DNA of 32,000 nt from Vibrio cholerae ATCC 14035 (GTDB lineage: Bacteria > Pseudomonadota > Gammaproteobacteria > Enterobacterales > Vibrionaceae): assembly GCF_000621645.1 (NCBI RefSeq), contig NZ_JHXR01000030.1, positions 2,979 to 34,978 of the forward strand, given 5' to 3'. How positions within the stretch are numbered: the stretch's first letter is position 1; every line of letters starts with the position of its first letter. Both the position numbers and the translations under genes were made by a program. The notes under the pieces were generated by a model. It was not told where the DNA came from and ran no database searches. It worked only from the letters and a program-made list of their open reading frames with translations. Positions 1-11,887 of the stretch are shown in pieces.

Positions 1-456
1 CAGATAAAGCGCCTCATTGGTTTCAACTTCAATCGTGCTGCCAGATTTCAGGTTAAAGCTATTCATCCGGCGAACGGGGTAAGGGATCTCGCCAGTTTCA
101 AGAAGCTGACCGTTTGTCAGGCAGAATGATTTGAGAATGACGGTTTCATGCTGGGGATTAATCAACTTCTTCTGAAGGTGGGTGTAATCCTGAGGAGCCT
201 CGGCAACTTGATGCGTTGCTGGTTCATCAATGCCTAGCGCCATCTTTGCAATAGGGATGCCCTTCGCCAGATGAAGTCTCACCATCAATTCGTGAGATGT
301 ACGATTGTGAAGGTTCCAAGTGCTGAAAGTCGCTTTAGGTACATCAAAAAGTTCAGCCATATCGCCAAACGTTGAACATCCTGTAACTTCCTTTAAAACC
401 TCTGTGAATTCATGACCTTTTATATAGTCAAAAGGTGGAATCTTTGTGTTTTTCAT
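1..456 (-). CDS. cI: Immunity repressor CI, coliphage-186 type (first 152 codons; the 3' end runs off the window)
   Basis: My own reverse-strand translation from the ATG at 456-454 reads MKNTKIPPFDYIKGHEFTEVLKEVTGCSTFGDMAELFDVPKATFSTWNLHNRTSHELMVRLHLAKGIPIAKMALG...SFNLKSGSTIEVETNEALYL and stays open to position 1. It is absent from the ORF track because it is truncated. The N-terminal HTH layout resembles the Phage_CI_repr domain of 186 CI. The gene is divergent from the cox-like gene. Confidence 0.75.
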   Translation of the reverse strand, partial: MKNTKIPPFDYIKGHEFTEVLKEVTGCSTFGDMAELFDVPKATFSTWNLHNRTSHELMVRLHLAKGIPIAKMALGIDEPATHQVAEAPQDYTHLQKKLINPQHETVILKSFCLTNGQLLETGEIPYPVRRMNSFNLKSGSTIEVETNEALYL

Positions 457-7282: not shown

Positions 7283-7819
7283 ATGAAAAAAGTTAAATCG
7301 CCGGAAGATATGCCATATCGATTACCTAAACCTGTGATTTTCTTTAATTCCACAAGTACAACGATAAGCAGTTTAGTGTCGAGTTCTGGCTATGGTAAGG
7401 AAGCATATCCATGGGCTGAACGTATGCTAGGACGATTCCCCTTGCCTAAATGGCAACGGCAATTAGTTTGGTCTGATGCACAAAAGCTCAGTTTTATAGA
7501 ATCTGTCTTTATGGGATATGACTTAGGCAGCGTCATGATTAATTCATATGAGGATCTAGGAAATGGTTTAACGCGCCCTATGTCAGACATATTGATCGAC
7601 GGGCAGCAACGCATATCAGCACTATTAGCATTTATAAATAACGAATTTGAATATGAGGGGTACTTCTGGAAAAACCTTAATCGCAGAGAACAAAGGAGAT
7701 TTTTAGAACGCGAAATGGGTAAGCGAACGACTGAATGCTATGACGAAAATGAATTAAAAAAAGTCTACAATCACCTTAACTTTTCTGGTGTTCGCCACGA
7801 AATTTCAGAAATGGCTTAA
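7283..7819 (+). CDS. Standalone DUF262 (ParB/Srx-like, GmrSD N-terminal type) protein, 178 aa
   Basis: PLPKWQRQLVW matches the FQR..vW motif and LIDGQQRISALL matches the DGQQR motif. No DUF1524/HNH half is present. AGGAG RBS lies 9 nt after the rep stop. A sampled 60-nt line gives about 33% GC. Confidence 0.75.
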   Translation: MKKVKSPEDMPYRLPKPVIFFNSTSTTISSLVSSSGYGKEAYPWAERMLGRFPLPKWQRQLVWSDAQKLSFIESVFMGYDLGSVMINSYEDLGNGLTRPMSDILIDGQQRISALLAFINNEFEYEGYFWKNLNRREQRRFLEREMGKRTTECYDENELKKVYNHLNFSGVRHEISEMA

Positions 7820-7863
7820 AGGCTATTAACAAATTACCTCAACACAAAGAGAGTACCACCACC

Positions 7864-7889
7864 AAGCGCCTGCGGGCGCTTTGTTGTCT
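7864..7889 (+). terminator. Hairpin terminator between convergent genes
   Basis: AAGCGCC (7864-7870) pairs with GGCGCTT (7875-7881) around a TGCG loop, followed by TGTTGTCT. Confidence 0.5.
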
Positions 7890-7892
7890 CCG

Positions 7893-8231
7893 CTATGCGC
7901 TGCGGCTTTGCGCCGCAATTTCATCATTAATCGACTTAATCAACTCAATCAAACAATCACGAATCGGCGCGGGGAGAGAATCCACCTGCTTGCCTTCTGG
8001 CGAACTCACCGCCCCGTGCATGATCATATGCCCAACTGAAATCTCAAGCGCCGTACTTAAACGCCGAATCTGGGCAATATCCACCACTCGTTCACCCTGT
8101 TCTAACCGCTGCAACATACGCAGCGAAACGCCAGCACGCTCGGCAACCTGCTGCTGAGTTAAGCGCTTACGCAAACGCTCCTGCGTGAAAAACTGCATGA
8201 TGGGATCAATATCGTGAATCGTTTTTGCCAT
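7893..8231 (-). CDS. XRE-family helix-turn-helix regulator (112 aa)
   Basis: ERLRKRLTQQQVAERAGVSLRMLQRLEQGERVVDIAQIRRLSTALEISV is a canonical HTH_3 pattern. GAGG RBS is present. Confidence 0.8.
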   Translation of the reverse strand: MAKTIHDIDPIMQFFTQERLRKRLTQQQVAERAGVSLRMLQRLEQGERVVDIAQIRRLSTALEISVGHMIMHGAVSSPEGKQVDSLPAPIRDCLIELIKSINDEIAAQSRSA

Positions 8232-8411
8232 TCAATAACCTCAGTCGCCAAATATGGCGGATAAAACAAGCCGTTATGCCAACTGAGGTTAGGCAACCAC
8301 AAAAACTGATGTAGGTCGCAACACCGACGAATATTAACTTTTAGAGTACGGCGTCTAATACGCAATAGATTGAGCTATCTATCAGTATAGACAATAAAAC
8401 CAATAAAAAAA

Positions 8412-8446
8412 TTGAGAGCATAAAATCACTGTATTAATATACAGTA
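8412..8446 (+). promoter_or_regulatory. Sigma70-type promoter overlapped by a LexA (SOS) box
   Basis: -35 TTGAGA (8412-8417), 17-bp spacer, -10 TAATAT (8435-8440). The 20-mer CACTGTATTAATATACAGTA (8427-8446) fits CTGT-N8-ACAG with perfect 7-bp arms, close to the TACTG(TA)5CAGTA consensus. Confidence 0.6.
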
Positions 8447-8468
8447 AACGTCAGTAGGAGACAGTCAA

Positions 8469-8714
8469 ATGTCTGAATTAAAACACTTAGGCAATATCAA
8501 TCACTGTGATGTTGCACTATCAGCACTTGAAATAATTCTGGACGGAGTAGCCAGCAGCGAAAGCACGGAGCGAACGAGACAAGCGGGGGCATACCTCGCA
8601 CGGCTCGTCATGGCTGATTCACACGGAAGTTTTGATACAGATAAACAAAAGGCCATTCTCAGCATTATTGAGATGGCCTCAGAAGTCGAAAACCCAAGAT
8701 TTTGCAGCAGTTGA
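8469..8714 (+). CDS. Small acidic protein (81 aa) under the LexA box; candidate Tum/DinI-like SOS antirepressor
   Basis: AGGAG at 8456-8460 and ATG at 8469. The product has the same length as E. coli DinI. Its C-terminal DKQKAILSIIEMASEVE loosely resembles my recollection of DinI EDKQRISEILQETWES. The functional call is inference. Confidence 0.5.
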   Translation: MSELKHLGNINHCDVALSALEIILDGVASSESTERTRQAGAYLARLVMADSHGSFDTDKQKAILSIIEMASEVENPRFCSS

Positions 8715-8966
8715 TCACAACATAGAAAGCTGATGCTTAAGCCGTTGCCGCGCTTCTGGCGGCAACGCTTTACACAAATCAAACGCCAGTTGGCTAGTTG
8801 TTTTTGCAGATGGGCTCAACGTATGGCTGTAAGAAAGGTTCATCACAAACGTGTGGCCGCATTCGGGGTCACAGCACGCACAATACAAATCCGCAACACC
8901 AGCGGTAAAGCGGTTCGTCTTCTGAATTCGGGCTTTACCTTCGCACTCAGGGCAGAACACTCTCAT
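8715..8966 (-). CDS. ogr: Ogr/Delta-family zinc-finger late transcription activator
   Basis: MRVFCPECEGKARIQKTNRFTAGVADLYCACCDPECGHTFVMNLS has the Cys4 pattern and spacing of P2 Ogr. Start taken at the internal Met (8966). Confidence 0.85.
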   Translation of the reverse strand: MRVFCPECEGKARIQKTNRFTAGVADLYCACCDPECGHTFVMNLSYSHTLSPSAKTTSQLAFDLCKALPPEARQRLKHQLSML

Positions 8967-9036
8967 AATAACACCTAGCTTTTTTTTGACTGACGCGATA
9001 ATCATACGTCAATAAGCTGTGTTTTTGTACAGTTTA

Positions 9037-9522
9037 TCAGCTTTCTAGCTGTAGAGGATTCGCGGCTTTACAGAGTTCTTCCCAAGAGTTTGGCACCTTG
9101 CCGCTGTTTAGCATCTTTTCAAACACTGCATAAACGTCAGTCTTTGCTCCTGCTTTACGCTGGGTAGATTCATCATTCATCCATGCATAAATGATGGTTT
9201 TAGGAGCTTGGCTATTAAATTGAAAAAACAACCGATATCTTGGAGGTAAACTCTTTTTCTTTACTCTGCGCCATGATGTGTGCTTTTTGCCAAGTGTAAG
9301 CCCTTGACGAAAATCAGCATGGTCAGGATTGGAAGGAACGGTTTGAGTAATATTACAAAGAACCGCAAGCAATAACTTAGTACTAGGGTGGTCGTAAAAA
9401 TAGATTGGGTCTTTGGCTTGAAGTGTTTCAACTTCTTTTGTTAGATCATCCAGAAGATTTTGGAAGATGGATAGAGCGTGAAGCTCATAACCAGAAAAAA
9501 CGGGAATTTGCTTCGTTTCCAA
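9037..9522 (-). CDS. yhaV: Type II toxin YhaV-family ribonuclease
   Basis: The blocks VETLQAKDP, TKLLLAVL and RYRLFFQFNSQAPKTIIYAWMNDESTQRKAGAKTDVYAVFEKML match remembered E. coli YhaV blocks. A sampled 60-nt line gives about 33% GC. Confidence 0.85.
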   Translation of the reverse strand: METKQIPVFSGYELHALSIFQNLLDDLTKEVETLQAKDPIYFYDHPSTKLLLAVLCNITQTVPSNPDHADFRQGLTLGKKHTSWRRVKKKSLPPRYRLFFQFNSQAPKTIIYAWMNDESTQRKAGAKTDVYAVFEKMLNSGKVPNSWEELCKAANPLQLES

Positions 9523-9525
9523 TCT

Positions 9526-9720
9526 CTATCCTTCCCAACACTCTGCGCGAGCCTTAGCCGCTTCTGCCGCCGCTTTTATGGCGAACATACGATCAAGAAG
9601 AGAAGTAGATAGCGGCTGAACGTTTCCCTCTACTTTTACTTCACGATCAAGTAAGTCGATGAATTTATCTTCAACTTCTCGTTCACGTTTTTTGTCGTGT
9701 AGTGGTATAACTTTGCCCAT
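9526..9720 (-). CDS. Short (64 aa) PrlF C-terminal-like partner of YhaV; no AbrB/SpoVT domain
   Basis: The gene ends 3 nt upstream of the toxin gene's start codon. ATG 9720 is preceded by TAAGGT. DKFIDLLDREVKVEGNVQPLS resembles the PrlF C-terminal segment NAFLRFLDADIQNNPQKTRPF. The family assignment is tentative. Confidence 0.5.
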   Translation of the reverse strand: MGKVIPLHDKKREREVEDKFIDLLDREVKVEGNVQPLSTSLLDRMFAIKAAAEAAKARAECWEG

Positions 9721-9766
9721 TTTATGAACCTTAACTCTTTGCAGCAACGGCTGCGTGATGGGAATT

Positions 9767-9781
9767 TGTACGGTCTGTACA
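9767..9781. promoter_or_regulatory. Palindrome TGTAC-N5-GTACA upstream of the toxin-antitoxin operon
   Basis: TGTACGGTCTGTACA lies about 45 nt upstream of the antitoxin ATG, inside an AT-rich promoter-like stretch. Confidence 0.35.
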
Positions 9782-9830
9782 TGCTGTAAAATATATCATA
9801 AAAATTTTTATAAACAAGTTTGAGGCTGCT

Positions 9831-9860
9831 CCATCGGCAGCTATCGGCGCTCATCGGTTT
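9831..9860 (+). repeat. Three exactly 10-bp-phased YYATCGG repeats
   Basis: CCATCGGCAG CTATCGGCGC TCATCGGTTT. CTATCGG recurs at 9941-9947 and 10161-10167 and is inverted at 10079-10085. Confidence 0.7.
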
Positions 9861-9956
9861 GACTAAAGGGTTATAGATGGTATAGCCTATAAGCGTGTTG
9901 GCAAAATCCAACACCGGGATTAGTACCCCGCATTATTTTTCTATCGGTACACAAGT

Positions 9957-9980
9957 ACCAGCTTTTTGCTGGTTTTTTTG
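9957..9980 (+). terminator. Orphan intrinsic terminator in non-coding DNA
   Basis: ACCAGC (9957-9962) pairs with GCTGGT (9968-9973) around a TTTTT loop, followed by T6. There is no plus-strand ORF upstream of it. Confidence 0.55.
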
Positions 9981-10175
9981 TGTATGGCTTCAGCACATTT
10001 AAACATAGTCGTTTCGTATAGAAACCGTACTATCTGCATTATGGTGGGCTGGGCAGGGGCGCTTCGGCGCGCCGTGTTCCGATAGAGCGGTAGTACTAAC
10101 CTTGTCCAGTTCACCACCCATAGATTAGTACCTTTGAGTGGTGAGTAACTAAAATTTACTCTATCGGAGGTCACT

Positions 10176-10853
10176 ATGACTTCAGTACTGACTTTTCAGG
10201 ACACCCATTTTGATGTAGTTGAACGTAACAATCAGTTGTATCTCGATGCGTACCAAATTGGTACGGCACTAGGTTATAGCGATCCAAGAACTGCTGTACG
10301 TAAAATTTTTAATCGTAACAAAGATGAGTTTTCCAGTGGAATGTCTGAGGTCATCAATTTGATGACCTCAGGAAACTACCAAAAATCCGTACGTATTTTC
10401 TCACTGCGCGGCGCTCACCTCATCGCCATGTTCGCCAGAACGGCCATCGCAAAACAGTTCAGAAAGTGGGTGCTCGATATCCTCGATCAAGAAACCAAAA
10501 CCCAAACCATCATCCCCATTACCACCCCAACGCAAATTCCCAAAGCCAACTGGCCGATCACCTACCAAACCGATTGGAAACCCGCCACCATCACGTTGTT
10601 TGGTAAAACCGCCCACTATGTGCGTTTCGAGCTAAGACCCAAACCATTCAGTTGCGAGTTCAGTGCAAAACACACTCCGCAGGTTTATCAGGCGGTATTC
10701 CATTTCGCTGACCAATACAAAAGACCAAGTATCAGGAATGAAGCCCCAATGATTGGGGATATTGGCTATTTTGAATCAACAAGGCTTGATGACTTATGGG
10801 TACAAGTTATTAACTTTGCGGCAAGGTGCAATAGCCAATGTGCCTTGCTTTAA
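10176..10853 (+). CDS. Bro-N domain protein (antirepressor-like) with an unknown C-terminal domain
   Basis: LTFQDTHFDVVERNNQLYLDAYQIGTALGYSDPRTAVRKIF...IFSLRGAHLIAMFARTAIAKQFRKWVLDIL follows the Bro-N pattern. GGAGG RBS is present. Confidence 0.8.
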   Translation: MTSVLTFQDTHFDVVERNNQLYLDAYQIGTALGYSDPRTAVRKIFNRNKDEFSSGMSEVINLMTSGNYQKSVRIFSLRGAHLIAMFARTAIAKQFRKWVLDILDQETKTQTIIPITTPTQIPKANWPITYQTDWKPATITLFGKTAHYVRFELRPKPFSCEFSAKHTPQVYQAVFHFADQYKRPSIRNEAPMIGDIGYFESTRLDDLWVQVINFAARCNSQCALL

Positions 10854-11887
10854 ACCTCGATGCTCAAATCAAAATTGAAAGACAGTGATTCCGGTATCTC
10901 TGGGTCACTGTTGATTGCATCAGAAAAACGCTTACACACCGGAACCACTTCATACTTGTCATAAACTTGGCTGACTTTGAGTGGGTCTGGTGCTGTTGCG
11001 TCTGTCTGCGGGATCATGCCGCCCATCCCTGCTGGGAAACGATGCCCCACAAAAATATCTTGCGCCGTGATGTTCTTGATCCGCTCAAACTCATCTTTCG
11101 TGGCAATATCGCCCACTGGAATCAGTTGAATGCCTTTCTCTGTCCCGTTCGGGATGTTCACAAACATACTGCGGAAATTACCGATCCCTTTAGAACTGGC
11201 AATCTTCTCTTTGAGTGCCTTTTCATCGTCATCGCTCAAGTTCGGGTCGGTCGCATAGAAAATAAAGCCCATGTGCGCACCGTTCAGGTAATAGCGGCGG
11301 CGAAACAGGGTGGCGTCACGGTTCAATAAACTGCTTTGAATGCTGCCCAAGTAATCAGGCAAGCCGTATATCTGCTGCTGCGGGTCATACTGGGGAATAA
11401 AAATCACATCCTTCGCTTTAAATACCTTTTGCTCGTTGTTACGCAGCAACTGAACAAAGTCCCCGTTCTTACGCTTGCGCATGTGAACCATGGGCAAAGG
11501 TTCAAGAGCGATCACATTCTTCATATAACTGCGTATCTTCACAAATGCTGCCATACCAAGGCCAAAATAATCCCAGCAAGCATTATTCATTTTGTACATA
11601 GGCATGTTGCCACCACTCAGGAAGCGACCAGCCACATAATTGGCCCGCGCTTTCAGCAGTGAACCGTGATACCCGTTCGCGTTGGCAATTTCAGCTAACC
11701 CTTTTAACGAAATAGGCGGCTCCCAGTAATCATCAAACTCGTTGTAAAACAGCTCACAATAACGAGTCATCCAACTGTTTGTATCAACGGGCTCCGGGTT
11801 TGGGTCAAAGCTGTACACAGATTTGCTCTCTGTGCCATCGGTAGTGTGTGAGTGAATAAGTTGCTCTGTCATGCTGCCATCTGCCAT
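10850..11887 (-). CDS. Q: Portal protein, P2 gpQ family
   Basis: The 345-aa gene follows the terminase in a P-then-Q operon. Synteny and length match gpQ. An alternative coupled start at 11872 overlaps the terminase stop (ATGA). Confidence 0.9.

Follow-up and report, generated by a model that had tools for sequence, protein, structure and literature searches.

ORF12, a small protein under a predicted LexA operator, as candidate induction switch of K139/kappa-family prophages in Vibrio cholerae

The prophage analysed here lies in a window of 32,000 nucleotides from Vibrio cholerae ATCC 14035 (contig NZ_JHXR01000030.1, positions 2,979 to 34,978), and the gene in question is orf12, which occupies positions 8469 to 8714 of that window and follows a LexA box. 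By analogy with coliphage 186 it is rather probable that ORF12 is a LexA-gated antirepressor of a 186-type CI immunity repressor, and as such it would most likely be the switch that wakes phages of the K139/kappa family after DNA damage. An earlier note on this DNA had proposed 186-like regulatory logic for the gene. Strong support for this proposal came from the box, which was found in 37 of 37 loci, from a CI of the non-cleavable type, from the lack of Tum and from induction by mitomycin C.

Nucleotide comparison showed that the window holds a V. cholerae prophage of the O395 type, which belongs to the K139/kappa family of Peduoviridae. Positions 7800 to 10900 gave 99.8% identity to the GenBank fragment 'Vibrio phage O395' (ORF10 to ORF14c), and 98.6% identity to K139, kappa, VcP032 and VPUSM8, with the latter matches ending near ~9040. 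The open reading frame at 8469 to 8714 was 98.8% identical to K139 orf12, which is labelled merely 'orf12' or hypothetical.

The LexA box and the promoter of orf12

The sequence CACTGTATTAATATACAGTA at positions 8427 to 8446 is a near-consensus LexA box that fits CTGT-N8-ACAG exactly. The arms ACTGTAT (8428–8434) and ATACAGT (8439–8445) are perfect over 7 bp, and the spacer, ATTAATAT, consists entirely of A/T. The box agreed with TACTGTATATATATACAGTA at 17 of 20 positions and with the LexA box of V. cholerae, CTGTATATATATACAG (PMC5963079), at 14 of 16 positions. The CTGT-N8-ACAG pattern occurred twice in the 32-kb window, compared to an expected 0.36 occurrences. Scoring with an approximate LexA matrix gave 24.6 bits, compared to 12.2–26.3 bits for the training sites and a best score of 20.2 bits in 200 shuffled controls; the annotated LexA site of 186 p95, which served as positive control, was recovered at 25.5 bits. 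Besides the sites in the orf12 and ogr promoters nothing in the window scored higher than 10.3 bits, the value of the third-best site. The box was as the earlier note had described it, in sequence, arms and spacer.

The promoter, P12, consists of TTGAGA (8412–8417) and TAATAT (8435–8440) separated by 17 nt, with 9 of 12 hexamer positions matching and the LexA box overlapping the -10. The same hexamers are marked 'P12; putative' in the GenBank record of K139, where the LexA site is not annotated. The promoter had also been called strong, a description left unsupported, since matches of this quality (9/12) were no commoner in the region than in shuffled sequence (5 compared to 5.9 expected). The box lies upstream of the 81-residue open reading frame, with 22 nt between its end and the ATG. 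The motif CGTCAGT was observed a few bases downstream of this box (8450–8456, plus strand) and again downstream of a second LexA-type box described below (8989–8995, minus strand), close to where transcription from P12 and P13 is expected to start, and is conserved in relatives; it could belong to the context of the start sites or be an operator common to both promoters for a further factor. An Rfam search of positions 7500 to 10500 gave no RNA family in the spacer between orf11 and orf12, the sole match there being mir-216 at chance level.

Conservation of the box was examined in 37 loci, which comprised ten from phage records including the window (the homologues being those of K139, PV94, ValB1MD-2, L9-1, E8498, Ch457 and three V. 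cyclitrophicus prophages), 23 from GTDB species-representative genomes and four contigs with P0157 and P0149, the most divergent members of the family. The box was found in the core promoter just upstream of the true start in all of them, down to a protein identity of ~33%. The pattern CTG-N10-CAG was exact in 36 loci and had one mismatch in Ch457, and the box scores of 27 relatives ranged from 20.3 to 26.9 bits. Within the 20-kb loci of the relatives, sites of at least 13 bits were almost confined to the promoters of the orf12 homologue and ogr. Further LexA-like sites of 18–25 bits were seen in L018 (6716), L024 (1211 and 1854), L026 (263) and L028 (3117), in prophage left arms or flanking host DNA.

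The promoters of the K139 type are arranged as TTGnnn, 17 nt and TAATAT with the box on the -10, while in the commoner layout TAGAAA or TGGAAA is separated from TATATT by a 17-nt spacer made up exactly by the box. When the K139-type spacers were aligned the box and core promoter formed an invariant block, which was the best-conserved intergenic stretch, and the remainder diverged. In databases the homologues are frequently annotated from an ATG within the LexA box ('MDIQYI...', for example L006, L007, L009, L010, P0003 and P0006), so that 15–35 residues are wrongly added; the conserved start lies further downstream, at 'MS..K', and is served by a separate ribosome-binding site. In Salinivibrio phage SMHB1 (L041, 10520–10724) an identical box core, CTGTATTAATATACAG, was found together with the K139 leader. 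The open reading frame behind it encodes 53 residues and was undetected by the hidden Markov model of the ORF12 family, but by eye resembled helices 1–2 (…AYLYRLIAKD…), and seems to be a relative that has diverged or been truncated.

The helix-turn-helix gene orf11 is divergent from P12 across a spacer of 237 bp. Genes of this type were found at the same divergent place in K139, PV94 and SMHB1, together with the K139-type promoter, and were absent from other relatives, suggesting that orf11 may add a second input in this sub-lineage. The published SOS transcriptome of V. cholerae was obtained with strain N16961 and mentions neither K139 nor kappa (PMC5963079). Taken as a whole, the sequence and conservation of the box make control of orf12 by LexA highly probable.

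The ORF12 protein and the immunity repressor

The product of orf12, read from its ATG start, has 81 residues and a mass of 8.8 kDa, and is acidic as the earlier note had stated, with an isoelectric point of 4.95 and 12 Asp and Glu compared to 7 Lys and Arg. Acidity extends throughout the core of the family (median isoelectric point 4.29, median net charge -6). The protein matched phrog_5581, annotated as function unknown, over its full length (1–81/81) with an E-value of 7.9e-47. The family is small: a word-seeded profile search gave 245 relatives, and when 1.84 billion representatives were searched exhaustively 60 sequences, representing the family at 50% identity, were obtained. The named members are nearly all from Vibrio, with one from Photobacterium, and all are labelled 'hypothetical' and have no Pfam domain. 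The invariant or near-invariant residues are A19, L20, D25, G26, V27, S30, G40, D56, K59, A62, I67, M69 and A70. AlphaFold2 with an alignment of 40 sequences predicted an all-helical three-helix bundle with helices at 12–29, 34–50 and 57–70 and no strands, at a mean predicted local distance difference test score (pLDDT) of 80; this model superseded a weak single-sequence run (pLDDT 65). No meaningful match to ORF12 was obtained in Pfam, NCBIfam, PADLOC or the PDB sequences, and Foldseek searches of PDB and BFVD with the model gave nothing at E ≤ 0.001.

Membership of the Tum/DinI family (PF06183) was rejected on three counts, namely BLASTP, the alignment of family profiles and the predicted fold. 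BLASTP between ORF12 and Tum gave no alignment at E ≤ 100, in keeping with the earlier view that ORF12 is not a close Tum homologue. Comparison of 40 ORF12-family with 15 Tum-family sequences using hhalign gave a probability of 0.5% over 15 columns, which paired only KAILSIIEMASEVEN with EALDSILQEVWEDES. The DinI fold is alpha/beta, and no DinI domain was matched in ORF12 using Pfam or NCBIfam, while 186 Tum matched DinI at 1.8e-17 and PRK10597 at 1.5e-11. The 'DinI-like C-terminal flavour' formerly attributed to the protein must consequently be dropped; the short acidic helix KAILSIIEMASEVEN was probably behind that impression.

The repressor at the left end of the window (1–435, minus strand) matched Phage_CI_repr, and the full-length CI of K139 matched both Phage_CI_repr and Phage_CI_C with no peptidase domain, in agreement with its earlier assignment to the 186 CI type. 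The C-terminal part of this CI aligned to 186 CI at 36% identity. When compared with K139 CI over 145 residues the identity was 68%; the two proteins are near-identical beyond residue ~100, and the N-terminal, DNA-binding part diverges. On this comparison the prophage of the window is probably heteroimmune to K139 yet carries the same putative antirepressor.

CI, cox and a CP76-type cII were found alongside the ORF12 homologue in 19 of the 23 genome loci and in all four distant contigs; the remaining four genome loci showed no CI within the flank, and at least two of these lie near a contig end. Wherever the flank reached CI it was of the 186 type without a peptidase domain, and none of the ORF12 loci examined contained a Tum homologue. 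The orf12 gene lies between rep and the portal/terminase operon. A tum-like position between rep and cos had been suggested previously, and the gene order of phage 186 (A, p95 with its LexA site, tum, orf97, cos) and the K139 record both agree with it. PV94 and the K139-like phage VcP032 were obtained by induction with mitomycin C, and since CI is non-cleavable and the phages are SOS-inducible, an SOS-controlled effector is required. Besides ogr, orf12 is the sole conserved gene with a LexA-type operator.

A sequence of events is proposed in which P12 acts as a sigma-70 promoter whose -10 lies under a high-affinity LexA operator, so that ORF12 would be silent in the lysogen. DNA damage would activate RecA and cause LexA to cleave itself, whereupon P12 would fire the single-gene unit P12-orf12-T12, a step read from the sequence to which conservation gives strong support. 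The product would be an acidic three-helix protein of 8.8 kDa, restricted to the K139-like Peduoviridae of Vibrionaceae. By analogy and elimination the most likely target of this protein is the 186-type CI, a repressor lacking an autocleavage domain; binding would end repression of PR, allowing Cox, CII, rep and the remaining lytic programme to begin. Contact is perhaps more likely to be made with the conserved C-terminal domain of CI or with a generic surface, because K139 and the window differ in the DNA-binding domains of CI while their ORF12 proteins share 98.8% identity.

The divergence of ORF12 was compared with that of other prophage proteins using the mirror-tree approach. Correlations of 0.70 with cII, 0.65 with the C-terminal domain of CI and 0.62 with cox were obtained, compared to 0.18 and 0.25 for its physical neighbours ogr and rep. 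This lends weak support to ORF12 as induction effector.

Several points weigh against ORF12 as an antirepressor of CI under LexA control. ORF12 has no similarity to known antirepressors by sequence, profile or fold search. The mirror-tree signal is non-specific, as the portal protein also gave a correlation of 0.60 and cII ranked above CI. In Pasteurella phage F108 a related CI and a box at the ogr promoter occur without an ORF12-like gene or a strong LexA box, which shows that not every CI of this type is paired with ORF12. The LexA matrix derives from E. coli sites and its absolute values are rough, and V. cholerae sequences that merely resembled the LexA box failed to bind LexA in electrophoretic mobility shift assays (PMC5963079), which bears chiefly on the weaker second site described below.

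The second LexA-like box, alternative readings and neighbouring genes

The second CTGT-N8-ACAG of the window lies at 9017–9032 within a 20-mer upstream of orf13 (Table 1), whose product is an Ogr-type late-gene activator; this LexA-like operator was absent from the earlier note, as was the antisense RNA module described below. On the minus strand, which codes for orf13, the box reads AACTGTACAAAAACACAGCT and is followed by 8 nt, TATGAT and then the conserved GTCAGTCA. A site at the same position, scoring 12.8–21.8 bits, was found in 25 of the 29 loci in which ogr is convergent to the ORF12 gene, the other four having the proximal half-site only. The box was kept where other genes part ogr from the ORF12 gene (for example CACTGTATAAAAACACAGTC and AACTGTATAAAAAACCAGTA) and was also present at the ogr promoters of SMHB1 and F108, the latter as AACTGTATAAAATCACAGCC followed by TAGAAT. 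In five loci an Ogr_Delta gene instead follows the ORF12 homologue in the same orientation after 20–35 nt, without an intervening box, and the co-directional ogr variants of L019 and L026 also match Ogr_Delta; in these five loci ogr would share the operator of the ORF12 gene.

The ogr gene of P2 and ogrK of E. coli K-12 showed no site above 4.5 bits, indicating that the ogr-promoter box is not a general trait of the P2 family, though ogrK has been listed with a 'potential SOS box' (PMC6590174). In HP1 this region also had no convincing LexA box, the best site of that phage scoring 13.6 bits and lying elsewhere. An unannotated Ogr-like zinc-finger frame, apparently frameshifted, was observed in HP1 (L040) at ~10420–10680 on the minus strand between orf14 and portal. 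As LexA-like sequences can fail to bind LexA, operator function of the second box was rated as reasonably probable, below that of the box at orf12. The weaker operator at the orf13 promoter probably ties late transcription to the same signal as ORF12. A wider, less probable model is put forward tentatively, in which LexA would directly gate both a new-fold antirepressor, ORF12, and an Ogr-type activator in K139/HP1-like Peduoviridae of Vibrionaceae (the second element at least in F108 as well), with ORF12 acting on the C-terminal oligomerisation domain of CI and able to cross-induce heteroimmune relatives.

An unlikely but serious alternative is that ORF12 is controlled by LexA and performs another SOS-timed function, with CI being inactivated by a different route. 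Such a function could be a block of CII or assistance to Cox in favour of lysis, modulation of RecA or LexA, arrest of host division or replication, or joint action with the adjacent Ogr-like activator. In favour of this reading, ORF12 resembles no antirepressor in sequence or fold, its best co-divergence partner is cII rather than CI, its gene is always beside or in an operon with the Ogr-like gene, which itself has a LexA-like box, and F108 combines a related CI with the absence of an ORF12-like gene. Against it, the conserved gene set offers no other candidate for SOS-dependent inactivation of CI, LexA-like sites being found only at orf12 and orf13; ORF12 and ogr co-diverge poorly (r 0.18), no DinI- or RecX-type fold match was obtained, and the Ogr homologues of P2 and 186 act alone.

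A further candidate is ORF14c, which belongs to a P1 immI-like module at 9882–10853, 1.4 kb downstream of ORF12, in which a sub-threshold c4-a1b1 target, a C4 antisense RNA and isrK all lie directly upstream of ORF14c. This module is, on the evidence of its domain and RNA family matches, a second and LexA-independent antirepressor-type system. It is highly improbable that the antirepressor of this prophage is ORF14c, as a BRO-N Ant under a C4-type antisense RNA as in P1 immI, with ORF12 being incidental. The strong matches of ORF14c to phrog_5060 'anti-repressor Ant' and Bro-N, and the RNA scores above the Rfam gathering values (Table 1), fit such a role, but the module sits in a variable hotspot and is missing from K139 and most relatives, which are nonetheless inducible, and there is no LexA-like site nearby. 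N15 has a C4-like anti-immunity beside a separate LexA-controlled antirepressor, so the two systems are not alternatives. Least probable of all is that the palindrome is a chance or structural promoter feature or an operator of the divergent orf11 product, to which the lack of regional enrichment of promoter-like matches, the failure of some LexA-box lookalikes to bind and the divergent placement of orf11 in K139, PV94 and SMHB1 might point, since both half-sites are retained in 37 of 37 loci while the flanks diverge, the scores of 20–27 bits are on par with the validated 186 p95 site, and most family members lack orf11 yet still retain the box.

The features on which the antirepressor reading of ORF12 is based are given in Table 1 together with the neighbouring genes. 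The variable slot between ogr and portal is filled by the immI-like module and toxin genes, which are absent from K139; most relatives also lack the module. The stop codon of the YhaV-type toxin gene abuts the second LexA-like box, and the small open reading frame upstream of it may encode the antitoxin. The product of orf10 has only a GmrSD_N/DUF262-type domain and a weak PADLOC match, and may have a defence-related role, either as a truncated protein or as one that stands alone.

Table 1. Coordinates within the window of orf12, its predicted regulatory elements and neighbouring features.
Feature	Position	Strand	Evidence
CI immunity repressor, 186 type, N-terminal 145 codons (gene leaves the window); presumed target	1–435	-	Domain matches; comparison with K139 CI
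orf10, 178 residues	7283–7819	+	GmrSD_N/DUF262-type domain; PADLOC NsnA (4.3e-12)
orf11, 112-residue HTH_3 protein, divergent from P12; possible second regulator in the K139/PV94/SMHB1 sub-lineage only	7893–8231	-	Domain and profile matches
P12 -35, TTGAGA, after A/T-rich stretch 8394–8411	8412–8417	+	Putative P12 of K139 record; block kept in K139, PV94 and a metagenome-assembled relative
LexA (SOS) box CACTGTATTAATATACAGTA over the -10, putative	8427–8446	.	24.6 bits; conserved at the homologue promoter in 37 loci
P12 -10, TAATAT, within the LexA box	8435–8440	+	Sequence match; K139 annotation
Shine-Dalgarno AGGAG, 7 nt 5' of the ATG	8457–8461	+	Sequence
ORF12, 81 residues, acidic, predicted three-helix bundle; candidate SOS-triggered antirepressor	8469–8714	+	phrog_5581; 98.8% identity to K139 orf12
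orf13, Ogr/Delta-type zinc-finger late-gene activator, tail-to-tail with ORF12	8715–8966	-	PF04606 (E 6.5e-15); K139 start; conserved neighbour
Putative terminator T12, hairpin then UUU, inside the 3' end of convergent orf13	8739–8770	+	-22.5 kcal/mol, z -2.3; putative T12 of K139 annotation
Second, weaker LexA-like box AGCTGTGTTTTTGTACAGTT upstream of orf13	9015–9034	.	18.6 bits; kept in 25/29 convergent-ogr loci
YhaV-type toxin	9037–9522	-	PF11663 (E 2e-42)
Small open reading frame upstream of the toxin gene	9526–9747	-	phrog_18497; no Pfam match
isrK	9895–9978		61.4 bits (Rfam gathering 50)
C4 antisense RNA	10037–10121		71.5 bits (Rfam gathering 45)
ORF14c	10176–10853		phrog_5060 'anti-repressor Ant' (E 1.1e-79); Bro-N match

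Comparison with known systems

The ORF12 circuit is the known 186-type logic with an unrelated effector family and an extra LexA-type operator on the late activator. The identity of the switch, its perfect conservation and the operator at ogr are new, while the existence of some such switch in K139 could be expected by specialists. Full-text searches, which did not reach the original K139 genome paper (Kapfhammer 2002), found no literature linking K139 orf12 to LexA or antirepression, and the searchable sources gave no description of DNA-damage sensing by the K139/kappa phages. Epidemic V. cholerae widely harbours K139/kappa prophages, which carry the glo factor. Particles from induced K139/kappa prophages drive the killing of neighbouring cells and the uptake of DNA (PMC7657591). 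If ORF12 is an antirepressor, ~250 'hypothetical' Vibrio proteins would gain a function and SOS-inducing antibiotics would be linked to induction of the K139 phage family. ORF12 would in that case be a third solution beside Tum and AntC, structurally unrelated to both, and would provide a compact LexA/CI/antirepressor switch orthogonal to the 186 parts. Direct gating of an Ogr-type activator by LexA, if true, would be an unusual way of silencing late genes in lysogens.

The closest counterpart is the p95-tum region of coliphage 186, where a LexA box also lies on the -10 of a promoter between a replication gene and cos/portal, CI has Phage_CI_repr and Phage_CI_C without an autocleavage domain, and the small product is encoded far from the immunity region. 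The phenotype of a Tum deletion in DuoHS is reportedly a precedent for a LexA-gated antirepressor. Despite this, Tum and ORF12 share no sequence or profile similarity; Tum has 146 residues with an alpha/beta DinI-like half, while ORF12 has 81 residues, an all-helical model and no DinI domain. The orf12 unit is monocistronic with no equivalent of orf97, unlike the p95-tum operon, and the Tum family is enterobacterial whereas the ORF12 family is confined to prophages of the Vibrionaceae type. In 186 the late activator B is repressed by CI, but here the late activator has a LexA-like box.

AntC of N15 and GfoA and GfhA of Gifsy-1/3 are similar in that a host LexA operator gates a small protein which inactivates a non-cleavable repressor without proteolysis, and N15 also has a separate RNA-controlled anti-immunity module, as does the window. 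The proteins and repressor families are however unrelated, the prophages are lambdoid or, for N15, a linear plasmid, and no homology to ORF12 was detected. In the TF-smORF modules of plasmid-like Vibrio phages a small protein inactivates cI without proteolysis, independently of SOS and dependent on a transcription factor (Silpe et al. 2023, PMC10432266). The small open reading frame of those modules is divergent from a helix-turn-helix factor, as orf12 is from orf11 in K139, PV94 and SMHB1, but here the input that is conserved is a LexA box, and most members of the family lack orf11. The immI region of P1 and P7 (c4 antisense RNA, icd, ant) resembles positions 9882–10853, where Rfam C4 and a1/b1-type matches are followed by a BRO-N Ant-type open reading frame; unlike orf12, this module of the window lacks a LexA box, and it is an accessory insert confined to the O395 variant.

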